A stretch of DNA of 56,533 nucleotides from an uncultured Spirochaetia bacterium. Lineage in GTDB: Bacteria > Oederibacteriota > PGYV01 > CAYTNY01. This document shows positions 1 to 52,016 of this stretch, one piece after another. Under the pieces are notes generated by a model that searched no databases, was not told the DNA's origin, and worked only from the letters and a program-made list of their open reading frames with translations. A program made the translations under genes and the position numbers. The stretch lies in assembly GCA_964439215.1 (NCBI GenBank), contig CAYTNY010000002.1, positions 1 through 56,533 of the forward strand. The letters are read 5' to 3'. The stretch's first letter is position 1; the number at the start of each line of letters is the position of its first letter.

Positions 1-345
1 GCTGTCTCGGTTATTGTTTCGGTAACTGTTTCTGTTGCTGTCTCGGTTATTGTTTCGGTAACTGTTTCTGTTGCTGTCTCAGTTATCGTCTCTGTCACTG
101 TTTCTGTTGCTGTCTCAGTTATCGTTTCCGTAACTGTTTCTGTGATCGTCTCGGTTATTGTTTCGGTAACTGTCTCTGTTATTGTCTCTGTAACTGTTTC
201 AGTTGCAGTCTCAGTAATCGTCTCTGTAACTGTTTCTGTCGTTGTTTCGGTTATTGTCTCTGTTGCAGTTTGCGTTGCGGTTTGTGTTACTGTCTGTGTT
301 GAAGTTCCTGTAACTGTCTCGGTTGCCGTTTCGGTTACTGTTTCA
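1..345 (-). repeat. Coding tandem repeat with a 12-bp unit encoding T-E-T-[V/I/A] and a higher-order 36-bp period
   Basis: Bases 1-36 and 37-72 are identical (gctgtctcggttattgtttcggtaactgtttctgtt). Degenerate 12-bp units continue to about 345 (roughly 28 units). The minus strand reads TETV TETI TETA. Confidence 0.95.
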
Positions 346-3300
346 GTTACCGTCCCTGTTGCAGTCGGCGTAACAGTTTCAGTATCCGCAGGCAGCGGAG
401 TTGATGTCATCGTTACAGTCGGCATAATTGTATTTGTTATGGTCATTGTCGGCGACGGCAATGCGCTCGTAAATGTAACATCCACAGATATATCCCTGTC
501 AGGCGCCGCGCTTGAGCCGGGCAGTCCGGAATCAGGAGTTATTGTATTTGTCTGGGCTGTTTCGTTATAGATTGTCACAGTCCCGTAGCCGTCTGAATCC
601 GTTGTTCCTGATACTGTATTTGTATTTATCCCGGATACGCCCGACAGCGTGGATGCGGTAAATATGGCGGCGCCTGTGGTATTAACGCTTATGCTTTGCG
701 TTTCCGAAACGTTGTTTCCATAGAGATCAGCCACCTGCAGATATATAATTACCGTTGTTCCTATATTTGTATATTCCGCGGATGTCCGGGCTATTATATG
801 ATCCGCTGCTCCGGCCCCCCAGACAAGCGCCGCACTTATATCCCTGTCAGGATCAGCTGTTGATCCCTGAAAAGAACTGTCAGACGTTATTGTTACACTC
901 TCCGCCGTATAGTTAATCAGGCTGACTGTGCCTGTTCCCGAGGCATCGGTTGTGCCTGTTAATGTATCTGTGCCTATGCCGCTTTGGCCGGACATTGATG
1001 CCGCGGTGAAAGTTGCGCTTCCCGAACATACAATTGTTACGGAATGATTCCCCGCCACAGTAACACCATCCGCGTCAACAACCGCAAACCCGAGCGTCTT
1101 CTCATCACCCGCTTCAAGACTGCCCGGTGATGTGTCATAAATTATCACGTGATCAGCCCCTGCCGAGACAAAGGTTATTTCTGCCGATATATCATTCGCG
1201 CTGTCGCCCCAGTAAGAAGAATCAACAGAAACCGTTATTGTCTCCTGCGTATTATTTTTAACCGCAAGATCCGCGTATCCTCCGGAATTTGCGGGCCCAT
1301 AAGCGGTATTTCCGCCAATAGTCCATCCCGCAGGCACTGTGCCCGCGTCAAAATACCCGTCCGATGATGCCGTAACAGTAACCCATAGCGGCGTTTCCAC
1401 AATATTGCCTGCAAGATCCTCTATTACTACTCTTACAGGCTCGCCCGTGCCTGCAGCGCCCGCGGCAGCTATACCGTCATCAGCGTAAACCGCGGCGTGG
1501 TCAGCCCCTGTAAATGTTATATAAGCGTCCGCATCTCTTCCTGATCCGGAACCCGTAAGAGCGCTTGACGCAGATACCGTAACGCTCTCGGCAGTATTAT
1601 TTGCAGCCGAAAAAACAGCTGCTCCGTAAGAATCAGTCTGTCCGTATATCTGGTTTGTCCCTGCTCCTGTCCAGCCGCCGGGCGCGGAATCAAAAACAGC
1701 ATTCCCGTTTATTGACAGGGTTATATCCTGCTGAACATACATTGCATTGCCGTCTGTATCAACAACTTGTGCCTGAAGTTCAACCAAGCTGCCTGCCGGC
1801 GATACTGTATTAAGCGGAGTCACTTCTATATGATCGGGCTCTTTTACTTCAAAAAAGAAGGAACGCGTGCTTAATACTCCGTTATCTTCTTCTGCCTCTA
1901 TTATGACTTCCCATTCCCCGTATTCCGGATTCGCCGGAATATTACTTTCTGTATAATATCTCTTCCATCCCGCGGGATTTGATGTGTCCGCAGACTCGTA
2001 TGTCATTGCCGCGTTGTTTATCAGAACATTTGCCGCCGCGTCTATTACAGTTATCCGGGCCGCCGCAACCGCATGCCCGCCAAAAGGGTCAGAAACCTGA
2101 GCCCCAATCCGTATATATTCTCCGTCAGTAAAAACGTTCCTTGTATTTGCGTCCGAATCAAAAGTCTCTATCCAATCAACACCCACATAATCCGTAACAT
2201 CAAAAGTGAGATTTGACCTCTGATCCGCGTTTGAACTATGATAGACCCTGATGTAACCGTTTCCCACTCCAAGATTCGTAAATATAGCACTTAATTTATA
2301 TCCCGCAGGTATGATAACCGGTTTGGTCAAAGCTATATTAAAAACATAATTTGTATGTTTGTTGTTGTCTTTGTGTCTTCCAAAAGTTCTCTCTTGCTCC
2401 CCTATATAATACGTTTCAATTCCATTTGTATAAAAAAGGGTTATACGTCCATTTGTATTTACAACTCTGTTATTTGTAATAACAATATTTACATCTACAC
2501 TGTTAACAATTCTCAAATCCCTGTACAGCACAGGGGACATACTCCATACGTGTGAATCATACCTGTTTATCTGCGTGTAATCACCCGCGGCGGACGTATC
2601 AGGCAGCGTGGTAAGGCTGCTTTCATGCAGTGCGGGAGACTGCACGGAACCGTGCAGCCACAGCTGCTTTGTTTCGGCATTTTTATACGCAGCACGTGTC
2701 GTCTGCACTGCTGAAGCGCTTATCCCTGAATTGTTTATTCCCGTAATTTTTATTTTTGTGGTTTCTGTTTCACCGCCCTCCGCGGTTTGGGGAACGGTTT
2801 TTCTGAACACAAGATGATGTGATGCATTATTATTAACCTGTATGTCCGGTTCTCCATTTCCATCCGTATCATAAGCAGGATCTACATAATCCCACTGCGC
2901 GTTCCCGGTCGTATCTTCCGCTATAACCGTACTCGTGTCTCCGTCTATAAGATGCAGCGGCCAGCCCTTATTACTCTGTTCAAGCGTTATATTAACCCTG
3001 TCATCACTGCCCGTGGTATTGCTTACTGTCAGGTCAATATCACCCGCTGCTCCTATATTCACTGTCTGTATGCCGTCCGGTTTTACACTGAGCCCGCCCA
3101 CATAAAAAACAACGGTTTTGGAGTCGTTTGATGTTTTTGTGTCATTTACTCCTTTATCATTCGCAAGATCCGTATAAACAACCGCAGTATACATACCCGG
3201 CGGAACCGATGAAACATCAAAACTATAATTGACCTCTGCTGTCTGCGCCAGAGGTATTGTAAGGTCAACCGTATCTATTGTATCGTTAATTTCCGCAAAA

Positions 3301-4919
3301 CCCGCGGGCCCCTGTATGTTTATCTTTACCGGCAGATCATACCAGTCCCTGAGCCCAAAATTCGCCGCAATTGCGTTTATTACAACATCGCCGCCGTCCT
3401 GCTGAAAAACTTCGCCGTCATAAGGCGCGGAAAGCGAAAGAATTCCGGCATCGTGCAGCCTCGTTTTCCCCGCGTCAATTTCATTCTGCATATCAACCTG
3501 CGCCTGCGCATTCAGTGTGTTGCCGTACCCCCAGACAATTTCCATAACACCTGTTTCCCCCGCCTGTATCGCGCCAAGGTTCCATTCCATACCCACGCTG
3601 GCATCACCCGAAGAATTTGCTGCATTATTAAGATTTGCGTTTGTTATTCCCGTCCATAAAGAGGTAAACGTTCCAACGTGATGCGCTTCACTGTCAAGAG
3701 AACCGGAAAAACCACCGTAAGATATGGGATCCCCCGCGGGTTTATATCCAAACACACTGTCATTTGACGCGTCATAAGAACAGTTGTCACCGGTAAAGTT
3801 TCCGTTAAAATTCCAGTCAACACCCTCAAAAAACCTTACATTAATGGCATTGCGCGTCGCGTGATTGTTTGTAATATAATAAATAGTCGCAAACCACTTA
3901 TTATTACCCCGTATTATTGTCTTTTTATTCACCAGAAAAGGTATTTCTGTCCCGCCAGTTGCCGTGGTCTGAAAAACCGTGCTTATTACAGCCTGCGGCT
4001 GCCCTTCCGGCGTTGTATGGAATTTATAATCAGTACTGCCCACATGCGCAAAATCTCTCGTTACGCTTGTTCCGGGATTTCCGTACTGATACGTATTCGC
4101 TCCGCTCGTAAAACGCAGCGCCATTTTCCCGCCCGCGTTTGTGTCAATCTCCTGCCCGATATTATCGCCTGTTCTCCCCAGATGGTCCATTGAAGCTGTA
4201 CCGTCTATAAGCGCTTCACCATTATAAGGATAAGCAATAAGGGAAAGCTGGCCCGCGCCGTTTATGGCTTCGCCCACGAGTATGGAAAAATTCGGCTGCG
4301 GCGGGGACAATACAACAGAATACCCGCTCACAGGGTCATCATAAAAATAAAGCGTATCACCTTCCATATACCACATAACATCGCCGCGTGTTTCCCCTGT
4401 TTCCCTGTCAATATATTCTGTGTTTATGATCTCAACACCGTCATCCCTGACAATCCGCAGAACACGGCGTCCTTCAGGGATCTCCGCTTTAAGCCTGTAC
4501 CACAATCCGTCTTCTTTGTCATTCAGACTTACTCGTATAAGTTTTTCATTTACTTTTTCCGTAAAAGACGAAGCCTTTATATGGGCAGACACGTCCGGTT
4601 TTTTTCCCGTTTCTCCGGCTGCTTTCAGAATCTGCCTCGCAGGAATTTCAAACTCTTTAACCGGCCCTATTTCCCGGTATTTCCCGTAATTCCGAAGATT
4701 TTCATCTGCGTCATTTTTGATTTTTTTACTTTTCTGCCTGTATATAAATACTTTCTCCGCAGGATCATACGCAATAATATCAGTTGATGTTTTTGCCAGC
4801 TCCCTGCTCTTTTCTGTTTTTTCCGACGCATACGCAAATAAAGGCATCAGCCCGATTAATGCAGCTCCGGCACATACCGCCAATCTCTTAAAACTAAATA
4901 CTCCTCTAATCCATTCCAT
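1..4919 (-). CDS. Giant secreted/surface protein (>=1639 aa, 3' end outside the window): signal peptide, beta-rich N-terminal domains, CARDB/NEW3-like Ig domains, four invasin/Big-like Ig repeats, Thr-rich (TETX)n stalk
   Basis: Translated by hand because it is absent from the ORF track. ATG at 4919 (MEWIRGVFSFKRLAVCAGAALIGLMPLFAYA, signal-peptide-like), GGGGG just upstream. I read no stop codon down to base 1, and the frame at 4919 matches the T-E-T-X frame at the window start. Four ~115-aa repeats begin (P/A)DH...(V/A)D..GN...T(D/N)..G (about 465-1838). Confidence 0.9.
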   Translation of the reverse strand, partial: MEWIRGVFSFKRLAVCAGAALIGLMPLFAYASEKTEKSRELAKTSTDIIAYDPAEKVFIYRQKSKKIKNDADENLRNYGKYREIGPVKEFEIPARQILKAAGETGKKPDVSAHIKASSFTEKVNEKLIRVSLNDKEDGLWYRLKAEIPEGRRVLRIVRDDGVEIINTEYIDRETGETRGDVMWYMEGDTLYFYDDPVSGYSVVLSPPQPNFSILVGEAINGAGQLSLIAYPYNGEALIDGTASMDHLGRTGDNIGQEIDTNAGGKMALRFTSGANTYQYGNPGTSVTRDFAHVGSTDYKFHTTPEGQPQAVISTVFQTTATGGTEIPFLVNKKTIIRGNNKWFATIYYITNNHATRNAINVRFFEGVDWNFNGNFTGDNCSYDASNDSVFGYKPAGDPISYGGFSGSLDSEAHHVGTFTSLWTGITNANLNNAANSSGDASVGMEWNLGAIQAGETGVMEIVWGYGNTLNAQAQVDMQNEIDAGKTRLHDAGILSLSAPYDGEVFQQDGGDVVINAIAANFGLRDWYDLPVKINIQGPAGFAEINDTIDTVDLTIPLAQTAEVNYSFDVSSVPPGMYTAVVYTDLANDKGVNDTKTSNDSKTVVFYVGGLSVKPDGIQTVNIGAAGDIDLTVSNTTGSDDRVNITLEQSNKGWPLHLIDGDTSTVIAEDTTGNAQWDYVDPAYDTDGNGEPDIQVNNNASHHLVFRKTVPQTAEGGETETTKIKITGINNSGISASAVQTTRAAYKNAETKQLWLHGSVQSPALHESSLTTLPDTSAAGDYTQINRYDSHVWSMSPVLYRDLRIVNSVDVNIVITNNRVVNTNGRITLFYTNGIETYYIGEQERTFGRHKDNNKHTNYVFNIALTKPVIIPAGYKLSAIFTNLGVGNGYIRVYHSSNADQRSNLTFDVTDYVGVDWIETFDSDANTRNVFTDGEYIRIGAQVSDPFGGHAVAAARITVIDAAANVLINNAAMTYESADTSNPAGWKRYYTESNIPANPEYGEWEVIIEAEEDNGVLSTRSFFFEVKEPDHIEVTPLNTVSPAGSLVELQAQVVDTDGNAMYVQQDITLSINGNAVFDSAPGGWTGAGTNQIYGQTDSYGAAVFSAANNTAESVTVSASSALTGSGSGRDADAYITFTGADHAAVYADDGIAAAGAAGTGEPVRVVIEDLAGNIVETPLWVTVTASSDGYFDAGTVPAGWTIGGNTAYGPANSGGYADLAVKNNTQETITVSVDSSYWGDSANDISAEITFVSAGADHVIIYDTSPGSLEAGDEKTLGFAVVDADGVTVAGNHSVTIVCSGSATFTAASMSGQSGIGTDTLTGTTDASGTGTVSLINYTAESVTITSDSSFQGSTADPDRDISAALVWGAGAADHIIARTSAEYTNIGTTVIIYLQVADLYGNNVSETQSISVNTTGAAIFTASTLSGVSGINTNTVSGTTDSDGYGTVTIYNETAQTNTITPDSGLPGSSAAPDRDISVDVTFTSALPSPTMTITNTIMPTVTMTSTPLPADTETVTPTATGTVTETVTETATETVTGTSTQTVTQTATQTATETITETTTETVTETITETATETVTETITETVTETITETITETVTETITETATETVTETITETATETVTETITETATETVTETITET

Positions 4920-4989
4920 ACGCCCCCGCGTGTAATTTAAAAACACCTTATAAATTATAACTTTCCTTATATTTTTCCCGTGTGTTTCC

Positions 4990-40213: not shown

Positions 40214-41557
40214 TTATATTATTTCGTCCAGCTTATTTGCTCTGCTTGCTTTCAGAAACAGGGTATCGCCTTTTTTCATTTCATTCTTCAGTATTTTCTT
40301 TAACTTCATTTTGCTTGCAAATATCCGCACATCGCGGTTATCCGCTCCGGCGGTCTCTGCCAGAAAACCTTTCTTCACATAAAGCGCGTACTTCCCGAAA
40401 ATAAAAACTTTTTTCGGATTCAAAGACGCAAGCATCCGCCCCGCTTCAATATGAGCCTTTTCTGATCCTTTTCCCAGTTCAAGCATATCGCCCGTAACCG
40501 TTATTATATTTTTATATCCTTCATCCTTGATTGTTTCCACGGACGCTCTGAAAGAATCCGGATTTGCGTTGTAGGAATCATTTATGACTCTGATTCCGTC
40601 CGAAACTTTTTCATCAAACCGCATTGATCCCTTCATGCTGAATTTCTTCATTGCTTCTGCCGCGTCATTTAATCCGCATCCCAGTACTGAAGCGGCCGCC
40701 GCTGCCGCGGTTATGTTATAAACATTATGTATCCCTTTAAGCTTTGTTCTTATTTTCTTTTTTCTGCCTTTAAAGCATATATCAAACACCGTGTAACTTT
40801 TTTCTCTGCGTATATTTTTCGCGCGGAATATTCCTTTTTTTATTCCAAAACTTATGATTTTTCTGCCGGCGGTTTTTTCCGCGAAATAATCATAATATCT
40901 GTCATCTTTATTCAGCACCACAGCTCCGTTCTTTTTTATTCCGCTTATTATTTCCGCTTTTGCCGCAGCAATACCTTTTACGCCTCTAAAAAAACCCGCA
41001 TGAGCCCTTCCTACATTTGTTATAGCGGCTGTATCGGGTTTTATTATTCTGACCAGACGCGCAATCTCTCCTTTTCTGTTCATCCCGATCTCCGCAACAA
41101 ACACCTGATGCTTCCTTCTTAATCCGAATATTGTAAGAGGAAGCCCTGTATGATTGTTATAACTTCTTATATTTTTATGCACATAATATTTTTCCGCCAT
41201 TATAGCCGCCAGGATTTCCTTGGTGGTTGTCTTGCCGTTGCTTCCTGTTATTGCGGCTGTCTTCAGTTCCGGAAACTTGGAATAATAATATCCCGCCAGT
41301 TCCAGCAGTGCTTTTTTTGTATCCTTTACTTTCAGCATTCCCGGTGCGTCATACATTTCATTGATAATCACCGCTGCTTTTTTTTTCACGGCATTCTTAA
41401 TAAACTTGTGTCCGTCTGTGCTTTCGCCTTTAAGAGCAAAAAACACGCTTCCTTTAACCAGACTTCTGGTATCAATAGATATACCTTTCACACGGCTGTT
41501 CTTTCCTTTATACACTTTTGAAAAAAACTCATAAATTTCTTTAACAGTAAGCTCCAC
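40214..41557 (-). CDS. murF: UDP-MurNAc-tripeptide--D-Ala-D-Ala ligase
   Basis: SIDTR, TGSNGKTT, EIGMN, NDSYNANP, GDMLELG, KASR. Confidence 0.96.
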   Translation of the reverse strand: MELTVKEIYEFFSKVYKGKNSRVKGISIDTRSLVKGSVFFALKGESTDGHKFIKNAVKKKAAVIINEMYDAPGMLKVKDTKKALLELAGYYYSKFPELKTAAITGSNGKTTTKEILAAIMAEKYYVHKNIRSYNNHTGLPLTIFGLRRKHQVFVAEIGMNRKGEIARLVRIIKPDTAAITNVGRAHAGFFRGVKGIAAAKAEIISGIKKNGAVVLNKDDRYYDYFAEKTAGRKIISFGIKKGIFRAKNIRREKSYTVFDICFKGRKKKIRTKLKGIHNVYNITAAAAAASVLGCGLNDAAEAMKKFSMKGSMRFDEKVSDGIRVINDSYNANPDSFRASVETIKDEGYKNIITVTGDMLELGKGSEKAHIEAGRMLASLNPKKVFIFGKYALYVKKGFLAETAGADNRDVRIFASKMKLKKILKNEMKKGDTLFLKASRANKLDEII

Positions 41558-44516
41558 TTTTTCCCTTTCCGGTTCTTTTATTTTTACCGCTGTTTATCCT
41601 CTGTATGGTTCTCATGATTACCGGCCTTTCATCCAATCTTACATACTTTCCCTTTATTTCCTGATAATTGCTGTGCCCTTTTCCTGTAATCAGTACGATA
41701 CCGCCTTTATCCGCGGTTACTATCCCTTTTTCAACAGCTTTTTTCCGGTCATATTCTATCTCTGCTTTTTCGGGGTGTTTCATTCCCGACAGGATCCCTT
41801 TTATAATTGCACTTGGCTCTTCAAACCTCGGATTATCTGTGGTTAAAATAATTCTATCGGCAAGTTTCTCCGCAATCCTTCCCATAATGGGCCTTTTCCC
41901 TTTATCTCTGTTCCCGGACACTCCCAGAACAAGCGTAATATTATTTTCTTTTATCTGGTTGAGCGTCTGAAGCACTTTTTCCAGACCGTCCGGAGTATGC
42001 GCAAAATCCATAAATACCTTCATATCTCCGGAATATACTTTTTCCATGCGCCCTTTAACCCCTTGGAACTTCATGAGTGCTGTTTTTATTTCTTTAAGGT
42101 CCATAAAGCCTTCTAGCGCACCGGCTGCGGCAAGAATATTGTATATATTATGTTCTCCTATAAGCTGTGTTTTAATCTTTATTTTTCTTTTCCCCGATAA
42201 AATCATAAACTCAGAACCTTGCCCGCAAACCCTGCATTCCGCCGCTTTAATATCGTTTTTCCGGCTCTTTATTCCGTACCTGACAATCTCTATATCAGCA
42301 GACCTTATTTTCGAAAATTTTCCGGCGCTGTTCTTGTCATCCGCATTCAGCACCAGTCTGCCGCCGGGCTCTACGGCTTCAGCGATACTCATCTTTACAT
42401 TTATATACTTCCCTATATCCGCATGATAATCCAGATGCTCCCTTGTAATATTTGTTATCACTGCGGTATCAAATTTCAGATTTTCCACACGCCCCTGGTC
42501 CAGGGCATGGGAAGAAACCTCCATAACCAGATATTTCACCCCTGCCCTCAGAGCCTTTTCAGCTATCCTGCAGATTTGAAGTTTTGAAGGCGTTGTATTT
42601 ACCGCCTTATAATTTTTTCTGCCGTCCGAATAATTTATAGTGCCTATGAATGCCGGATTTTTTTTTGTTTTTTCCTTTATTAAAAAGGCGATCAAAGAGG
42701 AAACTGTTGTCTTCCCGTTTGTCCCCGTCACTCCTATTATTTTTATTTTTTCAAGCACCTCTTTGTAATATATATCAATCATACCGGAAAAAGCTTTTTT
42801 TGTATCACTGACCTGTATGACCGTCATTCCTTTCGGCGCCTTTACTTTTTCCTGCACAACTGCGGCGCAGGCTCCGTTTTCAAAAGCTTCGCGTATATAT
42901 TTATGTCCGTTTGTTTTTATGCCTTTCACACATACAAAAACACTCCCTTTTTTCGCGCCGCCCGAAAACTCCTCTATTGAAGATATTTCCGCCATATCAC
43001 TGCCCTGAATAACTTTATAAGAATTCTCATTCCCCAAAATATCAATAAGCCTGGTCCGTCTGTCCTTTACTGCCTTTTCCGCTTCAAAAATGTCATCAAA
43101 CGGATACCGCTTTCCTTTAATCTCCTGATATGTTTCATGCCCTTTGCCCAGTATCACAACGATGTCTTTTTCTCCGGCGTTTTTAACACCGAGACGTATG
43201 GCTTTCCTCCTGTTTGATTCTATTTTAAACTTTTCTTTTTGTTTTATTCCGGAAACAATATCTTTTATTATATTCTCCGGCTTCTCGTCTCTTGGATTAT
43301 CAGAAGTAACTATTATGCGATCGCTGAAATCCCCGGCAATTTTCCCCATGATCATTCTTTTGCCCTTATCCCTGTTTCCGCCGGCGCCAAAGACCGTTAT
43401 TATTTTACCGCTGCCCAGCGCTCTTAATTTCTGCAGGACTTTTTTCATTGAATCCGGGGTATGCGCAAAATCAACGATCACCCTGCATTTTTCTGTTTCA
43501 ATCGTCTCCATCCGTCCTTTTACAGCCTCGAATTTTTTTACTGCCTTCTGCATATCTTTAATATTAACCTTATCGCACACAACACCTGCAGCCGCCATTA
43601 TATTGCTTATGTTATGCTCCCCTATAAGTCTTGTTTTAAATGGATATTGTTTCCCTTCTGTTTCCAGTATAAATTCAGAACCATTCAGGCCTGACTTATG
43701 TTTCAAAACTCTTATATCCGCCTTTTTTCCAAACGAAAAAGTAATTACCTTCACGCCTTTTTTTTCCGCTTCTTTCATAGCCGGAACAAAAGAACTATCG
43801 TCGCGGTTCAGTACAAGAATCCCGCCGTCTTTTATTTTGGATATTATCTTAAGTTTTGATCTTATATAATTATTCCGCGTTCTGTGATAGTCAATATGAT
43901 CCCTGGTGATATTGGTTATCACTGCCGCGTCAAACTTTATGTTTTCAACTCTTCCCTGTGAAAGCGCATGCGAAGAAACCTCCATTATAATATTTTTTAT
44001 TTTTTTCTCCGCGGATCTTCTTATAATCTTATTTACAACAAGATTTGACGGTGTTGTTGTTGCTGCCGGATATTTTTTATTCCCTATTTTATATCCCACT
44101 GTTCCTATTACTGTATTTTCTCCGTGCGTTTTGCTTTTAATCATTGCGTCCGCAATATAGGAAACTGTTGTTTTCCCGTTTGTTCCCGTTATGCCTATGA
44201 CCGATACTTTTCTCCTGTCATCGGCGTATATTTTCTCAACTGCTTTCAAAAGAGCCTTTTTTGTATTTGCTACCCGTATTATATTTATATTTTTATCCCT
44301 GACTGCTGTCTTTTTTTCAACGATTACCGCCCCGGCTTTTTTCCGGGCCGCTTCAGCGGCAAAAATATGCCCGTCTGTTTTAAACCCGCGTATACAGAAA
44401 AAGGCCGAACCTTTTTTTATCTGCTCTGAAGATTCTTCTATTCCGGACACAAACGCTTCATCGGTTCCCTGTTCAACTTTATATTTTATCCCTTCAAGTA
44501 TATCTTTTATTTTCAC
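41541..44516 (-). CDS. murE: Tandem double MurE (two complete UDP-MurNAc-dipeptide--diamino-acid ligase modules in one 991-aa ORF)
   Basis: Two copies each of TGTNGKTT, TTP, MEVSSHAL, HxDYH, GRME, DFAHTPD, GNRDKGKR, DNPR and GKGH. GTG start at 44516 with GGAGG RBS, overlapping the ftsI stop. Junction near 43055. Confidence 0.95.
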   Translation of the reverse strand: MKIKDILEGIKYKVEQGTDEAFVSGIEESSEQIKKGSAFFCIRGFKTDGHIFAAEAARKKAGAVIVEKKTAVRDKNINIIRVANTKKALLKAVEKIYADDRRKVSVIGITGTNGKTTVSYIADAMIKSKTHGENTVIGTVGYKIGNKKYPAATTTPSNLVVNKIIRRSAEKKIKNIIMEVSSHALSQGRVENIKFDAAVITNITRDHIDYHRTRNNYIRSKLKIISKIKDGGILVLNRDDSSFVPAMKEAEKKGVKVITFSFGKKADIRVLKHKSGLNGSEFILETEGKQYPFKTRLIGEHNISNIMAAAGVVCDKVNIKDMQKAVKKFEAVKGRMETIETEKCRVIVDFAHTPDSMKKVLQKLRALGSGKIITVFGAGGNRDKGKRMIMGKIAGDFSDRIIVTSDNPRDEKPENIIKDIVSGIKQKEKFKIESNRRKAIRLGVKNAGEKDIVVILGKGHETYQEIKGKRYPFDDIFEAEKAVKDRRTRLIDILGNENSYKVIQGSDMAEISSIEEFSGGAKKGSVFVCVKGIKTNGHKYIREAFENGACAAVVQEKVKAPKGMTVIQVSDTKKAFSGMIDIYYKEVLEKIKIIGVTGTNGKTTVSSLIAFLIKEKTKKNPAFIGTINYSDGRKNYKAVNTTPSKLQICRIAEKALRAGVKYLVMEVSSHALDQGRVENLKFDTAVITNITREHLDYHADIGKYINVKMSIAEAVEPGGRLVLNADDKNSAGKFSKIRSADIEIVRYGIKSRKNDIKAAECRVCGQGSEFMILSGKRKIKIKTQLIGEHNIYNILAAAGALEGFMDLKEIKTALMKFQGVKGRMEKVYSGDMKVFMDFAHTPDGLEKVLQTLNQIKENNITLVLGVSGNRDKGKRPIMGRIAEKLADRIILTTDNPRFEEPSAIIKGILSGMKHPEKAEIEYDRKKAVEKGIVTADKGGIVLITGKGHSNYQEIKGKYVRLDERPVIMRTIQRINSGKNKRTGKGKSGAYC

Positions 44517-46624
44517 AGGTCCTCCTTCAGCCCAAAACTTACGCTGCATTCGCTTCCTTTTGCGACGGCAACACCCGGTCCGGGTTTCTGCCGCACGGCA
44601 AAGCCGCTGCCCTGCACTTTCACTTTCAATCCCATTTCTTCCATGATCCGGAGTGTCTTTCTTATACTCATGCCTTTTAAATCAGGCATATAAACCCTTA
44701 ATCTGTTTTCATCCAGTTTATCGCCCAGATAAAGATTTATTCTTTCCCCCGGCTCCAATTTAACACCGGGTTCCGGACTCTGTCTTATGACAAAATGCCC
44801 GTATCCATACCGTGAAAAACTTACTTTTTTTTCATTCAGATGATCCCGTACTTCTATATATCTTTTCATTCTCATTTCAGGCACTTGAAAACTGACATAT
44901 GGTTTTTCCTCCGGCGTATCTGCCGATTCAATTTTTCTGCCTGATGTTATTTTCATATATGATATTATATTCTCGCTTATTTTCTTAAAAACAGGGGCAG
45001 CGGCATCGCCGCCGTAATAAACAGGTTTCGGCTCGTCAAGAACCACAAGCGCAAGAACCTTCGCTTTTTCCGCGGGCAGAAACCCCGCAAACGAAGCAAC
45101 ATAGGAGCCTTTCATATATCCCCTCCCGTTTTTTCTGTGCTTTTGAGCGGTTCCTGTTTTCCCCGCGACATTATATCCCGTTATGGCCGCCTTCCTGCCC
45201 GTGCCGTCCTCTTTAACCGCTTCCGAAAGCATATATATAAGACGTTCGTTTATATCTCCGGGAATCAGCCTTTTGCTTCTTCTGTTCCTGCTTTTAAATA
45301 TAACTTTATTATTTCTTTCAATTCTATCTACAATATGCGGATTAATATCATATCCGCCGTTCGCGATTACAGCATAAGCCTTCGCGAGCTGAACGGCTGT
45401 TACCGCAACTTCCTGTCCATACGGAATAGATGTAAGCGTCGTATTGTCCCAATCTCTGTAATGCCTTAAAATCCCCCGGGCCTCTCCGGGTATTTCTATG
45501 CCTGTTTTTTTTCCAAATCCAAATCCGGCATATTCTTTATACAAATTGGACTGCTTCAATCTTAATGCAATATTTACCATGCCTATATTTGAGGAATACT
45601 TTATTACCTCCGGAAGCGTAAGCCATTCGTATTCTTCGTGGTCATTTACATTTCGGTCAAAAAACATCTGCCTGCCGGAGCCGCAATGTACCTTATAATC
45701 CTTTACGTCCTTAAATTCCCTCAGAAACGCCGACATAGTAAATATTTTAAAAGTGGAACCCGGTTCAAATATATCCACTACAGCCGTATTTCTTCTTGCG
45801 GCATTGGAATAATCGCCGAAATTATTCAGATCAAAAGCAGGGTAATTCGCCAGCGCAAGTATGGCCCCTGTATCCGGTTCCATAATTATAACACTCCCTT
45901 TTTCGGCGTTATATTTTTCCGCTATTTTATTTAATTCTTTCTCCGCAAAACGCTGGATAGTTGCATCGAGAGTAAGATAAACATCCGCGCCTTTTTCCGC
46001 TTTCTTTATATTTACAGGTTTAAGATTTATCGCCCTTCTTCTTGCATCCCTTCTGATAACCGTTCTGCCTGTTTTTCCGCGCAGATATTTTTCCATTTCT
46101 CGTTCTATCCCTTCAAGACCTTTATTATCCATGCCCGCAAATCCTATTACATGCGCAGCCGTATCTCCCAGCGGATAGAATCTTTTTTCTTCACTTTGAG
46201 AAAAAATACCCTTTATTCCCGCATTCAGAATCTCATCCGCGGTTTCAGGATTTACTTTTCTCTTGATATAAGAAAAACTTCTGTATCCGGATATCTTCCT
46301 GTATGCCGCTCCATAAGATATACCCAGTTTATGAGCAAGCAGATTTGCCGCCTTTTTTTTATTTTTTATAAGCATTGGCGCGGCGCATATGGATTCTGTT
46401 CTTACGCTCATTGCCAGTGTTCTTCCGTTTCGGTCAAATATATTCCCTCTTCCATACTGCTTCTTTTCAGTTGAAAGATGCATTGCGCGGGCTTTCCTTT
46501 TAAAAAAGTCATGTTTTATGACCTGCAGCCAGATAAGCCTTGCCGCAACCAGAGCCATAATGATCACAAAAAAACCGAATACAAACTCTATTCTTCTGTT
46601 GCAGCTTTTCTGCGTATCTTTCAT
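44513..46624 (-). CDS. ftsI: Class B penicillin-binding protein FtsI with two C-terminal PASTA-like domains
   Basis: RGNIFDRNG, RFYP, EPGSTFK (SxxK), SSN, GKTGTAQ, VPEM.../MPDLKG...QKPGPG. Confidence 0.96.
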   Translation of the reverse strand: MKDTQKSCNRRIEFVFGFFVIIMALVAARLIWLQVIKHDFFKRKARAMHLSTEKKQYGRGNIFDRNGRTLAMSVRTESICAAPMLIKNKKKAANLLAHKLGISYGAAYRKISGYRSFSYIKRKVNPETADEILNAGIKGIFSQSEEKRFYPLGDTAAHVIGFAGMDNKGLEGIEREMEKYLRGKTGRTVIRRDARRRAINLKPVNIKKAEKGADVYLTLDATIQRFAEKELNKIAEKYNAEKGSVIIMEPDTGAILALANYPAFDLNNFGDYSNAARRNTAVVDIFEPGSTFKIFTMSAFLREFKDVKDYKVHCGSGRQMFFDRNVNDHEEYEWLTLPEVIKYSSNIGMVNIALRLKQSNLYKEYAGFGFGKKTGIEIPGEARGILRHYRDWDNTTLTSIPYGQEVAVTAVQLAKAYAVIANGGYDINPHIVDRIERNNKVIFKSRNRRSKRLIPGDINERLIYMLSEAVKEDGTGRKAAITGYNVAGKTGTAQKHRKNGRGYMKGSYVASFAGFLPAEKAKVLALVVLDEPKPVYYGGDAAAPVFKKISENIISYMKITSGRKIESADTPEEKPYVSFQVPEMRMKRYIEVRDHLNEKKVSFSRYGYGHFVIRQSPEPGVKLEPGERINLYLGDKLDENRLRVYMPDLKGMSIRKTLRIMEEMGLKVKVQGSGFAVRQKPGPGVAVAKGSECSVSFGLKEDL

Positions 46625-47036: not shown

Positions 47037-47918
47037 TTATGTTTTTTCGGCCGCGCGGAGTTTTGCGCTTCTGGACCTTGGATTAACCCGTTTTTCATCA
47101 TCAGCCGGGCGCACCGGCTTCTTTGTCAATACCAGAAGTTCTCCGCCGTTTTTATTCATATTTTTTTTAAAAAAATTCTTCACAATTCTGTCTTCCAGGG
47201 AATGGAACGATATAACGCATATCCTCGCGCCTTTCCCCAGATACGGCAAAACAGCAGCAAGGCTGTTTTCAATCTCATTAAGTTCATCATTAACTTCAAT
47301 CCTTATCCCCTGAAAAACTTTTGTCGCCGGGTGTATCTTTTCCATGCCTTTTTTTGCGTCTGCAATTATTTCCGCAAGTTCTCCCGTTGTTTTAACGGGC
47401 CTGCGCCTCATTATCGCGGATACAATTCTTTCATACTGCCATTCTTCTCCGTAATCACGCAGCACCCTTTCAAGATCCGCTCTATTATATGAGTTCACAA
47501 CATCATACGCCGTGAGCCCGGATTTCCTGTTCATTCTCATATCAAGCGGTGCGTCAGCGGAAAACGAAAATCCTCTTTTTGCACTGTCAAAATGCAGGCT
47601 GGATACTCCAAGATCATATATTATTCCGTTTATCTGCTCTATCCCTCTTTTGCTTAAAACTCCGGCAATTTCCGAGAACTCCGAATGAATTACTTCGGCG
47701 TTTGTATGTTTTTTAAGCCTTTCCCGGGTTATTTCAAGAGCCTGTTCGTCCCTGTCCATACTTAGCAAAACGGCTTCGTCCGACATATTTTCCAGTATTT
47801 TCTCACTATGTCCTCCGAAGCCCGCTGTTGCATCTACCCAGACGCCTTTTTTTTCTTTTACAACATCCAGATATTGTATTGTTTCTCCGAGCAATACACT
47901 TTTATGCTCTATTGTCAT
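47037..47918 (-). CDS. rsmH: 16S rRNA m4C1402 methyltransferase
   Basis: HKSVLL, DATAGFGGHS, DLGVSS, PLDMRM, HPATKVFQGIRI, SFHSLEDR, NPRSRSAKLR. Confidence 0.98.
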   Translation of the reverse strand: MTIEHKSVLLGETIQYLDVVKEKKGVWVDATAGFGGHSEKILENMSDEAVLLSMDRDEQALEITRERLKKHTNAEVIHSEFSEIAGVLSKRGIEQINGIIYDLGVSSLHFDSAKRGFSFSADAPLDMRMNRKSGLTAYDVVNSYNRADLERVLRDYGEEWQYERIVSAIMRRRPVKTTGELAEIIADAKKGMEKIHPATKVFQGIRIEVNDELNEIENSLAAVLPYLGKGARICVISFHSLEDRIVKNFFKKNMNKNGGELLVLTKKPVRPADDEKRVNPRSRSAKLRAAEKT

Positions 47919-48256
47919 ATAAGGCTTGAAAAAGCCATTATTGCCTCTTCTTCGTTGTTGTAGAATTCAAATTCACCCCAGTAACCCGCATATATAAACA
48001 GGTTTCTGACGTATTCGCTGCTTCCGATTATTTTTATGTCGCCTCCGAGGTTTCTGGCTCTTTCTTTCCTTTCATTAAGATATTCAATTCCGCTTACATT
48101 CAGATGGGTGACCCCGGAAAAATCCAGGACAAAGAAAAACTGTTCCTGTTCTATACATGAACTGATTATGCCTTTCAGCGCCAGTATATCTTCTATGTCA
48201 ATTTCCCCTTTTAGTATAAGAAGCACCGCTTTTTTACTTGAAGTCTTTACGCTCAT
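47915..48256 (-). CDS. STAS-domain protein (anti-sigma-factor antagonist-like)
   Basis: LKGEIDI...VLDFSGVTHLNVSGIEYL...GGDIKII...VRNLF...EEEAI; AGGAG RBS; stop overlaps the rsmH start. Confidence 0.9.
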   Translation of the reverse strand: MSVKTSSKKAVLLILKGEIDIEDILALKGIISSCIEQEQFFFVLDFSGVTHLNVSGIEYLNERKERARNLGGDIKIIGSSEYVRNLFIYAGYWGEFEFYNNEEEAIMAFSSLI

Positions 48257-48906: not shown

Positions 48907-49125
48907 GGTTTGTGGTTTGTGGTTTGTGGTTTGTGGAAACATTGAGTTTTGAGTTTGGAGTTTTGAGAAGATCCAAACATCCAAACTTCCGATATGGGTT
49001 TTGAGTTTTGGGAAGAACGGTTCAAAGTTCAAAAAAAAAATACAATTCAAAAACGAAAAAAATAAAAATTCAAACAGTACTTTTTGGTTTTTTTCACTTT
49101 GAACTTTGAACTTTGAACTTTGAAC
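48907..49125. repeat. Cluster of heptamer short tandem repeats, partly inverted
   Basis: (GGTTTGT)4 at 48907-48934; TTTTGAG-type x3-4 at 48942-48967; (GTTCAAA)2 at 49020-49033, complementary to (TTTGAAC)4 at 49098-49125. Confidence 0.9.
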
Positions 49126-49856
49126 TAAATCACTTCCCTCCCCGCCAATTCATGAAATATTATTGCAGCGGCGGCAGCTACGTTCAGTGACTCAACTTTA
49201 CCCGGATATGATATCTTTATTTTTGCATCCGCATTTTTTCTCAAGAACGCGCTTACTCCTTTTGATTCATTCCCCAAAACCACTGCTAATTTATCTTTCT
49301 TTGGTTTATATTTTTTTATATCCGTGCCTTCTTTAACATCCGTTATTACTATTTCAAAACGCTCCGCTATAAGTTTTATCTCTGTTTCTGAGCCTTCCGC
49401 CCAGTTCGTGCGGAATATATTTCCCGCAGATGCTCTTATGGCTCTTTCATTCAGGAGATTCACACTGTTTATGCATATAAAATTATTTATTCCATAAGCT
49501 GCCGCGCTTCTTACTATAGCCCCCGCGTTTAAAGGATCCCGCACTCCGTCCAGTATTACCAGCCTCTCTTCTTCAAACATATCTTCAATGCTGTATTTCG
49601 GGGCCTGAAAGACAGCAATAAAACCGCTGTTTGATTTCACCGCAGCAAACCTGTCAATAAAACTGCGTCTGGTTTTTTCCTTTTCGATTTCTGCACAAAC
49701 AACAGGTATTTCTTTTTCATCCGAATATATAAAATGTTTTAATTTCATTCCCGCATCCGATGCTTCTTCAAAGACTTTTTCCGTATCAACAACAAACAAT
49801 CTGTTCTCTTTCATACCTTTCACGTCTTTCAGCAGTTCAAGTGTTGCTTTTTTCAT
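49125..49856 (-). CDS. TrmH/SpoU family RNA methyltransferase
   Basis: LDGVRDPLNAGAIVRSA, RASAG, VLGNESKGVS, ESLNVAAAAAI. Confidence 0.93.
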   Translation of the reverse strand: MKKATLELLKDVKGMKENRLFVVDTEKVFEEASDAGMKLKHFIYSDEKEIPVVCAEIEKEKTRRSFIDRFAAVKSNSGFIAVFQAPKYSIEDMFEEERLVILDGVRDPLNAGAIVRSAAAYGINNFICINSVNLLNERAIRASAGNIFRTNWAEGSETEIKLIAERFEIVITDVKEGTDIKKYKPKKDKLAVVLGNESKGVSAFLRKNADAKIKISYPGKVESLNVAAAAAIIFHELAGREVI

Positions 49857-49871
49857 TGCCGCACCCCCGCT

Positions 49872-52016
49872 TTATTTTCCGTCATCCGTATATTTCTCAA
49901 CCCGGACAGCAATGTCTTTTTCAAACGCAGGCAGCTCCACTTTCAGAACCCCTGTATCCACTATTTCCTGTTTTTCATCGATGTACTCCCCTTTATGCGT
50001 GTCATATATCCTGATCATATATCTCGCGGATGCCAGCCCTTTTATCTTGAATTCAGATTCCGAAACCATACCCGGCTCGGAATTATCCCATAAATAGCGG
50101 TTATTTTTAATCCACACATAAGCAGATACATCAGACTGCATGCCGCTTATAAAAACATCCGCATAAGAAGGATCCCTGTAATTTTCAAATTCAACCTGTC
50201 TGAGAATTATATTGCCGTCCTCTCTGTTTGCGATTGAAATTTCATTGTTCCCTCTTCCCAGATCCGCATAAAAAACCTTATCTGTTTCCGCTTCATGCCT
50301 GTCCTGATGTTTATTCAATTTCCCGCCTTCTTTTTCCGCCGAGAGTTTTTCCTCCAGCACTGTCTGTTCGTTCACCTTAACCTCAAGAAGATTTTCACCG
50401 TGAAGCCCGCTTATCCTGATCACTGCTCTGCCCGGATACATGTTTGTGACAGAAAATATCTGCGTATTATCCGCACCCGAAAGATGGGAAAAAAAGTTCT
50501 CTCTGTTTATCACTTTCCCGTCCGGCCTGACAAAATATTTCCGGGGTTCCGGTGCCACCCACCTGTTCTTTGCGGCAACAATAAGCCGTCCGTATTCATC
50601 GGCCGGGGATTTTATTCTTATTTCTATATCTTCCATTTCATAAAAATCACCTCTGCTCCATCTTATGCCTTCAATAAACCCGGTAAAATTTTTATATATA
50701 CCGTAAAGATCCAGTTCATCAACATATACGTCCCACCACCAGGTCATCGGGCTGCCCGCCGAAAGAGAAAACGCTCCTGCCCATACCGCATTATGAAGAT
50801 GGATACCCCCGGGATCTTTTCCTTTTTTTGCAAAATCATCATATATGTCAATGCCGAATTCAGATACAATATGCGGTTTTGAAAACTCCCTTATCTTCTT
50901 TTTTGATACATCGTATATTTCAGCGGCGGCATCCCGCAAAAAGTATATATGCGTCTGGGTAAAATCAATGTCTTTCATTCTCCATATGGACTCTTCTTTC
51001 AAATCCCCGGAAAATGAAGTTGTCAGAAGTTTTCCGTAAATGTCATATTTTTTTATCTCATCAAATACATTTTTGTGCCAGGATTTCATTGTACGCGCGG
51101 AATAATCATGAGTAAGCTCCGCCTCATTTATCGCTTCGTAAGCCATAACATTGGGTGAGTATCCCCAGCGCGCGCAGATATACCTTATTCTGTTTCTATA
51201 CGTTTCAAACGCCTCTTTTGACACAAAAAATTCCCCGGGCAGTTCAAGCATTCCTCCGTTTTCTCTGTTATAAGGGTTGTTTTTCCACTCGCTGTTATAA
51301 TCAAGAGAAAATTCACCGTGCGCGAGAAAGCATAACATTATGTATATTCCTTTTTCCTCCCCCATTTTTATTATTTCATCCAGCATCTTCATTTGGCTTT
51401 CGCGGTGTCCGTAATCCTTTAAGGCTCCTGTTTCAAGCCCAAAACTCCAGGGCGCCATCCAGATCCTTATGAAATTAACTCCGTTTTCAGAGAGCCTTTG
51501 CATCCACCGCTCATAATCCTCCATAACATTGCCGGTTGACCAGCATAAACTCTGGCCCACGGCAAAAAACGGTTCTTTTGAATCCTTAAACTCAAAAAAC
51601 AGCGGATCCCTTGCGCTCACACCTATAAAATCCGGCCCCTGTTTTTCTTCAGTACATTCAAATGTTCTAACAGGCGATTGAAAAACTACTTTTCCTTCAC
51701 TGTAAAGTTCCGCCCTGTATTTCCATTTTCCCGCTGTCCGCGGAGTGAACCTTGAAACAAAAAAACCTTCCCCGTCTTTTTTTCTGAAAAAACCGTCTGT
51801 CTTGATTTTTTCACCTTCCGGCGTCCAGTAATAGACAGTCATCCCGTTAACAGAATAATCATAAGGATTTTCAAACCCAAAATTTCCTTTCAAGAGCAAT
51901 TCAAAGATCCCATAAGTTTTTATTCTTGTGTTTTCTGCGCTTAAATCAATATCCATGCCTTTCGCGAACGGCGCCAGCCCCAGCATTGATAAAATCACTG
52001 TAATTATTTTTTTCAT
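49872..52016 (-). CDS. Secreted DUF5060-domain / GH5-like (clan A) glycoside hydrolase
   Basis: Signal peptide; NPYD...RFTP..AGKWKY; GVNFIRIW; ARWGYSPNVMAYEAINE (acid/base) and HIVSEFG (nucleophile). Confidence 0.8.
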   Translation of the reverse strand: MKKIITVILSMLGLAPFAKGMDIDLSAENTRIKTYGIFELLLKGNFGFENPYDYSVNGMTVYYWTPEGEKIKTDGFFRKKDGEGFFVSRFTPRTAGKWKYRAELYSEGKVVFQSPVRTFECTEEKQGPDFIGVSARDPLFFEFKDSKEPFFAVGQSLCWSTGNVMEDYERWMQRLSENGVNFIRIWMAPWSFGLETGALKDYGHRESQMKMLDEIIKMGEEKGIYIMLCFLAHGEFSLDYNSEWKNNPYNRENGGMLELPGEFFVSKEAFETYRNRIRYICARWGYSPNVMAYEAINEAELTHDYSARTMKSWHKNVFDEIKKYDIYGKLLTTSFSGDLKEESIWRMKDIDFTQTHIYFLRDAAAEIYDVSKKKIREFSKPHIVSEFGIDIYDDFAKKGKDPGGIHLHNAVWAGAFSLSAGSPMTWWWDVYVDELDLYGIYKNFTGFIEGIRWSRGDFYEMEDIEIRIKSPADEYGRLIVAAKNRWVAPEPRKYFVRPDGKVINRENFFSHLSGADNTQIFSVTNMYPGRAVIRISGLHGENLLEVKVNEQTVLEEKLSAEKEGGKLNKHQDRHEAETDKVFYADLGRGNNEISIANREDGNIILRQVEFENYRDPSYADVFISGMQSDVSAYVWIKNNRYLWDNSEPGMVSESEFKIKGLASARYMIRIYDTHKGEYIDEKQEIVDTGVLKVELPAFEKDIAVRVEKYTDDGK

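Follow-up and report, generated by a model that had tools for sequence, protein, structure and literature searches.

A MurE-MurE fusion with a diverged amino-acid pocket in its second module, encoded in the dcw cluster of an uncultured Goldbacteria genome

MurE sets the chemotype of peptidoglycan, position 3 of the stem being the cross-linking residue. This position serves as a classical taxonomic marker, is a ligand for receptors of innate immunity and helps determine which transpeptidases and antibiotics can act on the wall. Fusions among enzymes of the Mur pathway are known, and a survey published in 2023, from which sequences of unidentified species were excluded, lists the types MurE-MurF, MurC-Ddl, MurC-MurB, MurG-MurC, MurD-FtsW and MraY-MurG and no MurE-MurE (PMC10214165). 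Here we analyze a murE-murE gene on the minus strand of a 56,533-nucleotide stretch of DNA (positions 1 to 56,533 of contig CAYTNY010000002.1, assembly GCA_964439215.1; the whole stretch is called the window in the following) from the uncultured phylum Goldbacteria, where it occupies the murE position of the division and cell wall (dcw) cluster. The MurE-MurF chimera of Bordetella pertussis (PDB 8F5D, NF008896, PMC10214165) is likewise a head-to-tail pair of Mur modules with a short linker at the murE position of this cluster, but differs in that the second module is MurE in our case and a separate murF follows. Since both modules are paralogues of the same step, channelling between consecutive steps is inapplicable here, unlike in MurE-MurF. 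Full-text literature searches retrieved no published MurE-MurE and no tandem or duplicated murE, only false matches (murein, the mitochondrial MURE2 element), and they yielded nothing relevant on the peptidoglycan of Goldbacteria. This agrees with the original prediction, made from the nucleotide sequence without database searches, that no MurE-MurE enzyme had been described.

In MurE, the asparagine and the arginine of the DNPR motif bind the distal carboxylate of meso-diaminopimelate (mDAP), and the aspartate of the same motif binds its distal amine together with Glu468 (Ruane et al. 2013, PMC3829189). The Lys-type enzyme of Staphylococcus aureus (PDB 4C12/4C13), in which the motif reads DNPA, shows that the DNPR arginine and the pocket glutamate govern which amino acid is loaded: loss of the arginine discriminates against mDAP, and the S. 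aureus variant E460A, in which the equivalent glutamate is exchanged, turns over very weakly, with a Km(L-Lys) of more than 20 mM (PMC3829189). The MurE of Thermotoga maritima (PDB 4BUB), which is the best sequence match in the PDB for both modules of the fusion (298 and 277 bits), carries DDPR, adds L-Lys and D-Lys, and sets a precedent for one organism with two residues at position 3. It does so with one bispecific active site, whereas the fusion has two separate active sites per chain.

In the window, the reading frame on the minus strand is open without interruption from 41541 to 44549. The GTG at 44516 is the likely start codon, because it overlaps the stop codon of the upstream penicillin-binding protein (PBP) gene as GTGA and follows the ribosome-binding site AGGAGG at a distance of about 6 nt; the resulting protein is identical to NCBI record P0002 from a metagenome-assembled genome of Candidatus Goldiibacteriota (all coordinates are collected in Table 1). 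The metagenomic source raises the suspicion of an artefact, be it a collapsed or chimeric assembly or a frameshift that masks a stop codon between two neighbouring murE genes. However, two Logan contigs from different studies, one of 32 kb at 33x and one of 770 bp (42544-43313), cross the junction at 43055 with 0 differences and without any indel or joint, and the same open junction is found in seven other full-length fusions (P0003-P0009) and two fragments from independent samples. An artefact is therefore extremely improbable, and the original view that the gene is no collapsed assembly repeat holds: neither a stop codon nor a mis-join is present at the junction. Other mat samples show strain variation in the fusion gene, namely C>T at 42958 (run X3) and G>A at 43908 together with A>G at 43989 (runs X2 and X3), and none of them is an indel.

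By hidden Markov models (HMMs), fold and catalytic residues, each module belongs to the MurE family. For HMM scoring, the protein was cut at the junction that had originally been proposed, and cutoffs of 373 bits for NF001126 (MurE mDAP equivalog), 257 bits for TIGR01085 (murE) and 289 bits for TIGR01143 (murF) were applied. With these models the N-half scored 507, 475 and 146 bits and the C-half 488, 456 and 134 bits, such that each half alone passes both MurE models and stays below the murF cutoff. The MurE-MurF model NF008896 reached 922 bits on the whole fusion, below its cutoff of 1023, and neither half clusters with MurF. A Pfam scan found two Mur_ligase_M and two Mur_ligase_C domains, and both modules have the three-domain Mur ligase fold (Mur_ligase, Mur_ligase_M, Mur_ligase_C). 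An alignment of the two halves covers 465 aa with 46% identity, and both contain the motifs GTNGKTT, MEVSSH, TR(D/E)H(I/L)DYH, DFAHTPD, GNRDKGKR and DNPR as well as the lysine aligned with the carbamylated one. Like single MurE enzymes, both modules thus contain the complete catalytic set, i.e., a P-loop of the type GxxGK(T/S), glutamate and histidine metal ligands of the E182/H210 type and a putatively carbamylated lysine position. In an AlphaFold2 model of the fusion, prediction within each module is confident (predicted local distance difference test, pLDDT, 82.6), and either module can be superposed on experimental MurE structures with template modelling (TM) scores of 0.85-0.92 (0.92 to S. 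aureus 4C13). The best whole-chain fold match is the MurE-MurF chimera 8F5D, with a poor superposition (root mean square deviation 15 Å); since the predicted TM score (pTM) is 0.55, the inter-module geometry of the model is unreliable and allows no conclusion on whether the active sites face each other. All in all, the originally proposed architecture, two full three-domain MurE modules encoded by the one gene at the murE position and no MurE-MurF chimera, is borne out, a standalone murF being present directly downstream.

The two modules are not equivalent, however. It had been predicted that neither of them is decayed, and indeed the P-loop, MEVSSH, the lysine position, DFAH and DNPR listed in support of this are kept in both, but the second module reads GKGHS and lacks the pocket glutamate. 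Of the two hallmarks of mDAP-type MurE, DNPR is present in both modules of the window, and the glutamate of GKGHE is present in the N-module, which is orthologous to the lone MurE of related Goldbacteria, and absent from the C-module. Compared with a single MurE, the fusion therefore differs not only in the presence of two modules per chain, but also in the serine of the C-module at the Glu468 equivalent and a further serine near the Arg389 equivalent. A set of 50 MurEs, made up of N-modules, standalone Goldbacteria MurEs and outgroups, served as the reference. In the columns with a conservation of 90% or more in this set, the C-modules deviate at only a few positions, nearly all of them in domain 3 near the amino-acid pocket. 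Two subgroups can be distinguished, subgroup A with the window, P0004 and P0010, and subgroup B with P0003 and P0005-P0009. The glutamate of GKGHE, which is found in the N-modules and standalone enzymes, is replaced by serine in the C-module of the window and by glutamine in those of P0004 and P0010, and is retained in subgroup B. A glycine of the GG in GAGGNRD, again present in N-modules and standalone enzymes, gives way to serine in the window, alanine in the remainder of subgroup A and proline in subgroup B. The Pro-Arg of DNPR is common to N-modules, standalone enzymes and the C-modules of subgroup A, where SDNPR has also become TDNPR, and is changed to Thr/Ala-Glu in the C-modules of subgroup B, which thus fail the DNPR hallmark with DN(T/A)E.

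These exchanges are rare in an alignment-based count over 449 other MurE modules. The GKGHE glutamate is present in 445 of them and the GAGGNRD glycine in 422; at the position of the DNPR arginine, 426 have arginine, 23 histidine and none glutamate. The combination seen in the C-module of the window, arginine kept and glutamate lost, occurs in 0/449, and it is the reverse of the situation in S. aureus MurE, which keeps the glutamate and has lost the arginine. Counting residues along an alignment with E. coli MurE, we assign the pocket glutamate to Glu468 and the DNPR arginine to Arg416. Judged from the aligned residues, the predicted pocket of the window C-module retains the carboxylate binders (Asn and Arg of DNPR) and is devoid of the acidic amine binder, while that of subgroup B appears more acidic, with glutamate in place of arginine, as in Lys-type enzymes.

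Several observations argue that both modules are kept functional. Across eight fusion proteins at about 45% identity, the residues invariant in both the N- and the C-module comprise the P-loop lysine (K126/K613, numbering of the 1002-residue form), the putatively carbamylated lysine position (K232/K719), the metal ligands (E190/E677 and H218/H705), the TTPS motif for binding of the dipeptide, the equivalent of Arg192 (R200/R687) and AHT(P)D. In the closest pair within the subgroup of the window, P0004 and P0010, dN/dS is 0.176 over the shared N part and 0.174 over the C-module, with dS unsaturated (0.31-0.37), i.e., purifying selection in this pair is equally strong on both parts (omega about 0.17). 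We infer that both modules are catalytically competent.

A maximum-likelihood tree placed all Goldbacteria modules and standalone MurEs in one clade (support 100). Within it, the N-module of the window has P0122, a standalone MurE, as its sister (96), and another standalone enzyme, P0139, takes the corresponding place next to the N-modules of the second subgroup (99). The C-modules fall into two clades, one with the window, P0004 and P0010 (93) and one with P0003, P0005-P0009 and P0011 (100), and in this tree none of them has a standalone protein grouped with it. A single origin of all C-modules was not rejected by the approximately unbiased (AU) test (p 0.19). In contrast, a recent private duplication, in which the two modules of the window form a clade, was rejected (AU test, p 0.00044), which together with their 46% identity confirms the original statement that the modules are diverged and not the product of a fresh duplication. 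The idea that P0122 is a recombinant hybrid of N- and C-module was also rejected, because P0122 is closer to the N-module along its entire length. Among the 25 closest standalone MurEs, a C-type module never occurs on its own, and all 23 that were scored for both motifs have SDNPR and GKGHE. The tree, the AU tests and the comparison with P0122 point to the N-module as the vertical orthologue of the MurE of the lineage, and to the C-module as an old paralogue that is kept only in the fused state and was lost or never gained in the relatives with a single murE.

Related genomes had been suggested as the place to look for the same fusion, and nine metagenome proteins from Goldbacteria carry it, the full-length P0003-P0009 (979-985 aa, 44-48% identity) and the fragments P0010 and P0011. 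The P0008 and P0003 fusions reside in the same syntenic dcw cluster including a diagnostic STAS gene, and both loci were each assembled independently by JGI and by Logan. The contig that bears P0010 (L093:1-417) has no frame ahead of the called start that would encode the rest of the N-module, so that P0010 should not be read as a natural form of 664 aa; probably the contig is chimeric or the gene is truncated there. The fusions of the DN(T/A)E type (P0003, P0005-P0009) share dcw synteny, the fusion itself, a canonical N-module and a pocket-altered C-module with the window, but differ in that their C-module keeps GKGHE and has glutamate for the DNPR arginine, and in the P-loop of the N-module. 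In the N-modules of P0005-P0009 this P-loop reads GTKGKT, (I/L)E(A/T)SS(Q/E/H) replaces MEVSSH and, in several of them, GNKD replaces GNRD, which shows that the 'ordinary' module has changed as well. In further Goldbacteria the synteny is identical, but there is only one murE, encoding about 490-500 aa, and murF comes directly after it (P0122, P0133 of GCA_018000835.1, P0124).

In a word-indexed search, the relatives of the fusion scored 880-1000 bits, followed by a sharp drop to ordinary MurE-MurF chimeras at no more than 509 bits. We also ran an exhaustive HMMER search over 1.84 billion representatives at 50% identity and classified every long match by its halves; MurE-MurE was found only in Goldbacteria clusters (P0005, P0010) and in one more protein, P0277. 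The latter stands at the head of a separate, unrelated family, in which about 25 clusters of MurE-MurE proteins carry the labels Rickettsiales or Alphaproteobacteria (P0277, P0376-P0403). These proteins resemble the Goldbacteria fusions in that they are about 980 aa long, keep the catalytic residues in each module and show a domain 3 asymmetry that is conserved. They differ by an independent origin, with only about 30% identity and NF001124 as the best equivalog match, and by their location: the gene for P0277 (L089:8001-10931) lies outside a dcw cluster, adjoins a gene of the alanine racemase family and has no murF adjacent to it. The asymmetry itself takes another form, as the N-module has DNPR and has lost GKGHE (ICGTMYEKD), while the C-module has DSPR and GKGHE and a remodelled FSTCGDxYE region. 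All MurE-MurE fusions found are annotated simply as MurE. The architecture is thus rare and confined to part of the Goldbacteria and one unrelated alphaproteobacterial clade, contrary to what would be expected of a fusion common in many phyla, and given the unrelated P0277 family it arose at least twice independently. A scan of contigs with a profile of generic Mur-ligase motifs was uninformative on distribution, since among the matches listed there were ordinary murE+murF or murE..murD arrangements from many phyla and no Goldbacteria. A further chimera came to light in P0374 (959 aa), a MurE-MurC fusion with 577 bits for the MurE equivalog at 7-491 and 510 bits for murC (TIGR01082) at 502-958, a type that the 2023 survey does not list (PMC10214165).

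How might such a protein work? In the mechanism that we regard as the most likely, one polypeptide would provide two catalytically competent MurE ligases, head to tail. The N-module would make the normal mDAP tripeptide. The C-module, an old duplicate, would still bind ATP and the same UDP-MurNAc-dipeptide and use the same acyl-phosphate chemistry, but its pocket for the incoming amino acid would have been rebuilt, with serine instead of the glutamate that binds mDAP or Lys at the distal amino group, serine instead of glycine beside the Arg389 equivalent, and the carboxylate-binding DNPR kept. With such a pocket, the C-module would load another amino acid at position 3, or the same one with very different kinetics, and a single protein would supply the cell with two different UDP-MurNAc-tripeptides, each of which would be handed to the downstream MurF. 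We infer from the pocket residues that the modules differ in selectivity, and we rate the chances of different amino-acid selectivity or strongly shifted kinetics in the C-module, giving a second tripeptide species, as evenly balanced. Because arginine and asparagine are kept and the amine-binding glutamate is lost, the residue loaded by the window C-module may be one with a distal carboxylate and without a distal amine, or a modified one, whereas the Glu-for-Arg pocket of subgroup B points to a cationic residue such as Lys or Orn. That part of the Goldbacteria builds an undescribed peptidoglycan, the fused protein making two tripeptides, one with mDAP from the N-module and one with a second residue from the C-module, is a more far-reaching proposal that we put forward tentatively and would not be surprised to see fail. 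The original prediction had offered three functions, different residues at position 3, sequential extension of the stem, or a new substrate of one module; a different position-3 residue or new amino-acid substrate would fit best, as the changes are confined to the amino-acid pocket, and sequential extension is disfavoured by the unchanged residues for binding of the UDP-MurNAc-dipeptide.

Some points weigh against the proposed mechanism. A search for RNA runs gave none. The C-module of the window sits on a long branch (0.92 compared to 0.46 for the N-module), which could reflect relaxed constraint in this lineage, and the dN/dS values stem from the neighbouring pair P0004/P0010 and not from the window's own sequence. 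There is also no single obvious new substrate, because the two subgroups changed different pocket residues. Moreover, serine or glutamine may still form a hydrogen bond with the distal amine, in which case mDAP would remain the substrate. This last point leads to the main rival, namely that both modules add mDAP and the fusion is a matter of dosage, isozymes or scaffolding, e.g., a high- and a low-affinity site or a stabilized Mur complex, the chemistry of the cell wall being unchanged. DNPR, the signature of mDAP-type enzymes, is indeed kept in the C-module of the window, both halves score best on the mDAP equivalog model, and other Mur chimeras are thought to serve stoichiometry or the assembly of complexes (PMC10214165). 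Pure redundancy, however, leaves unexplained why the changes are confined to the amino-acid pocket, why a glutamate found in nearly all other MurEs was lost although the equivalent exchange renders the S. aureus enzyme almost inactive, and why the sister subgroup swapped the arginine that binds the mDAP carboxylate for glutamate. We therefore consider shared mDAP specificity rather unlikely, yet worth keeping in mind.

The loss of a residue that is critical in another MurE and the long branch would also suit a C-module that has become a non-catalytic or regulatory pseudo-ligase that binds substrate or partner proteins, e.g., a scaffold for MurF, MurD or MurG, with turnover left to the N-module, and the MurE-MurF chimera shows that Mur modules can act as interaction platforms. 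Pseudoenzymes usually lose the P-loop or metal ligands first, whereas in the C-modules all catalytic and ATP/Mg-binding residues are invariant across about 45% sequence divergence and omega is the same as for the N-module, which makes a pseudo-ligase improbable. Finally, the C-module could act after the N-module on another acceptor carboxylate and extend or branch the stem, a residue being attached, for instance, to D-Glu at its alpha-carboxyl or to mDAP at its distal carboxyl. Such a succession would follow the logic of MurE-MurF, a head-to-tail fusion of consecutive steps, and MurT illustrates that the Mur-ligase fold can target the alpha-carboxyl of D-Glu. A change of acceptor should, however, have remodelled domains 1 and 2, and in the C-module the acceptor-binding side is unchanged and only the pocket for the incoming amino acid is affected; we regard extension or branching as highly improbable.

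As originally stated, the fusion gene is part of the dcw cluster, and this cluster is complete, running from mraZ via a STAS gene, mraW, an ftsL-like gene, the gene for a PBP with PASTA domains, murE-murE, murF, mraY, murD and ftsW to murG, murC, murB, ddl, ftsQ, ftsA and ftsZ. The PASTA domains, a typical feature of PBP2x/PknB-type proteins from monoderms, are located at the C-terminus of the division PBP. A secretin gene on the related contig L001 (L001:3332-4636) suggests a diderm envelope. The STAS-domain protein (anti-sigma-antagonist-like, 113 aa) is encoded between mraZ and mraW, an unusual location for a regulator of this type, and the insertion is present in every Goldbacteria dcw cluster looked at (L001, L003, L005, L007, L008). 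Directly upstream of mraZ are genes for a GH5 cellulase/DUF5060 protein and a SpoU methylase, and since L003, L006 and L007 have these two genes next to their dcw clusters as well, the arrangement is a case of conserved synteny in the phylum. At its left end, the window contains part of a very long open reading frame that runs past this end.

Table 1. Positions of the murE-murE fusion gene, its modules and motifs, and further genes in the window
Feature	Position	Strand	Remarks
murE-murE fusion gene	41541..44516	-	991 aa from GTG 44516; 1002 aa if ATG 44549 used
N-module, canonical mDAP-type MurE	43056..44516	-	NF001126 507 bits; DNPR and GKGHE both present
Short basic linker/junction, about KDRRTRLIDILGNEN	43020..43064	-	junction alignment
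C-module, complete MurE-type ligase with altered amino-acid pocket	41541..43055	-	NF001126 488 bits
N-module P-loop GTNGKTT	44166..44186	-	
C-module P-loop GTNGKTT	42705..42725	-	
N-module DNPR	43290..43301	-	contacts distal carboxylate and amine of mDAP (role from PMC3829189)
N-module GKGHE	43134..43148	-	Glu equivalent to E. coli Glu468
C-module DNPR	41826..41837	-	kept in the window; DN(T/A)E in sister subgroup
C-module GKGHS	41670..41684	-	pocket Glu replaced by Ser (codon 41670-41672)
C-module GVSGNRDKGKR	41892..41924	-	Ser in place of Gly, two residues ahead of the Arg that matches E. coli Arg389 in the alignment
Standalone murF, directly downstream of the fusion	40214..41557	-	TIGR01143 388 bits, cutoff 289
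Class B PBP (FtsI-like) with PASTA domains, directly upstream	44513..46624	-	translationally coupled to the fusion
STAS-domain gene	47915..48256	-	
GH5 cellulase/DUF5060 protein and SpoU methylase	49125..52016	-	
Very long open reading frame	3..4946	-	at least 1648 aa

Known Mur chimeras join different steps of the pathway, and a fusion of two paralogues of the same step that differ in the amino-acid pocket follows another logic. The Goldbacteria protein is a homotypic Mur-ligase chimera with a diverged amino-acid pocket, an architecture that recurs in two lineages. With changes of the Glu468 type and of the Arg416 type on the same scaffold, the Goldbacteria fusions amount to a natural experiment on how the specificity of MurE is encoded. 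The pocket of the C-module hints at an unusual or mixed cell wall in the organism from which the window derives, and assays of the fusion would open a direct way to study the cell-wall chemistry of this uncultured phylum.

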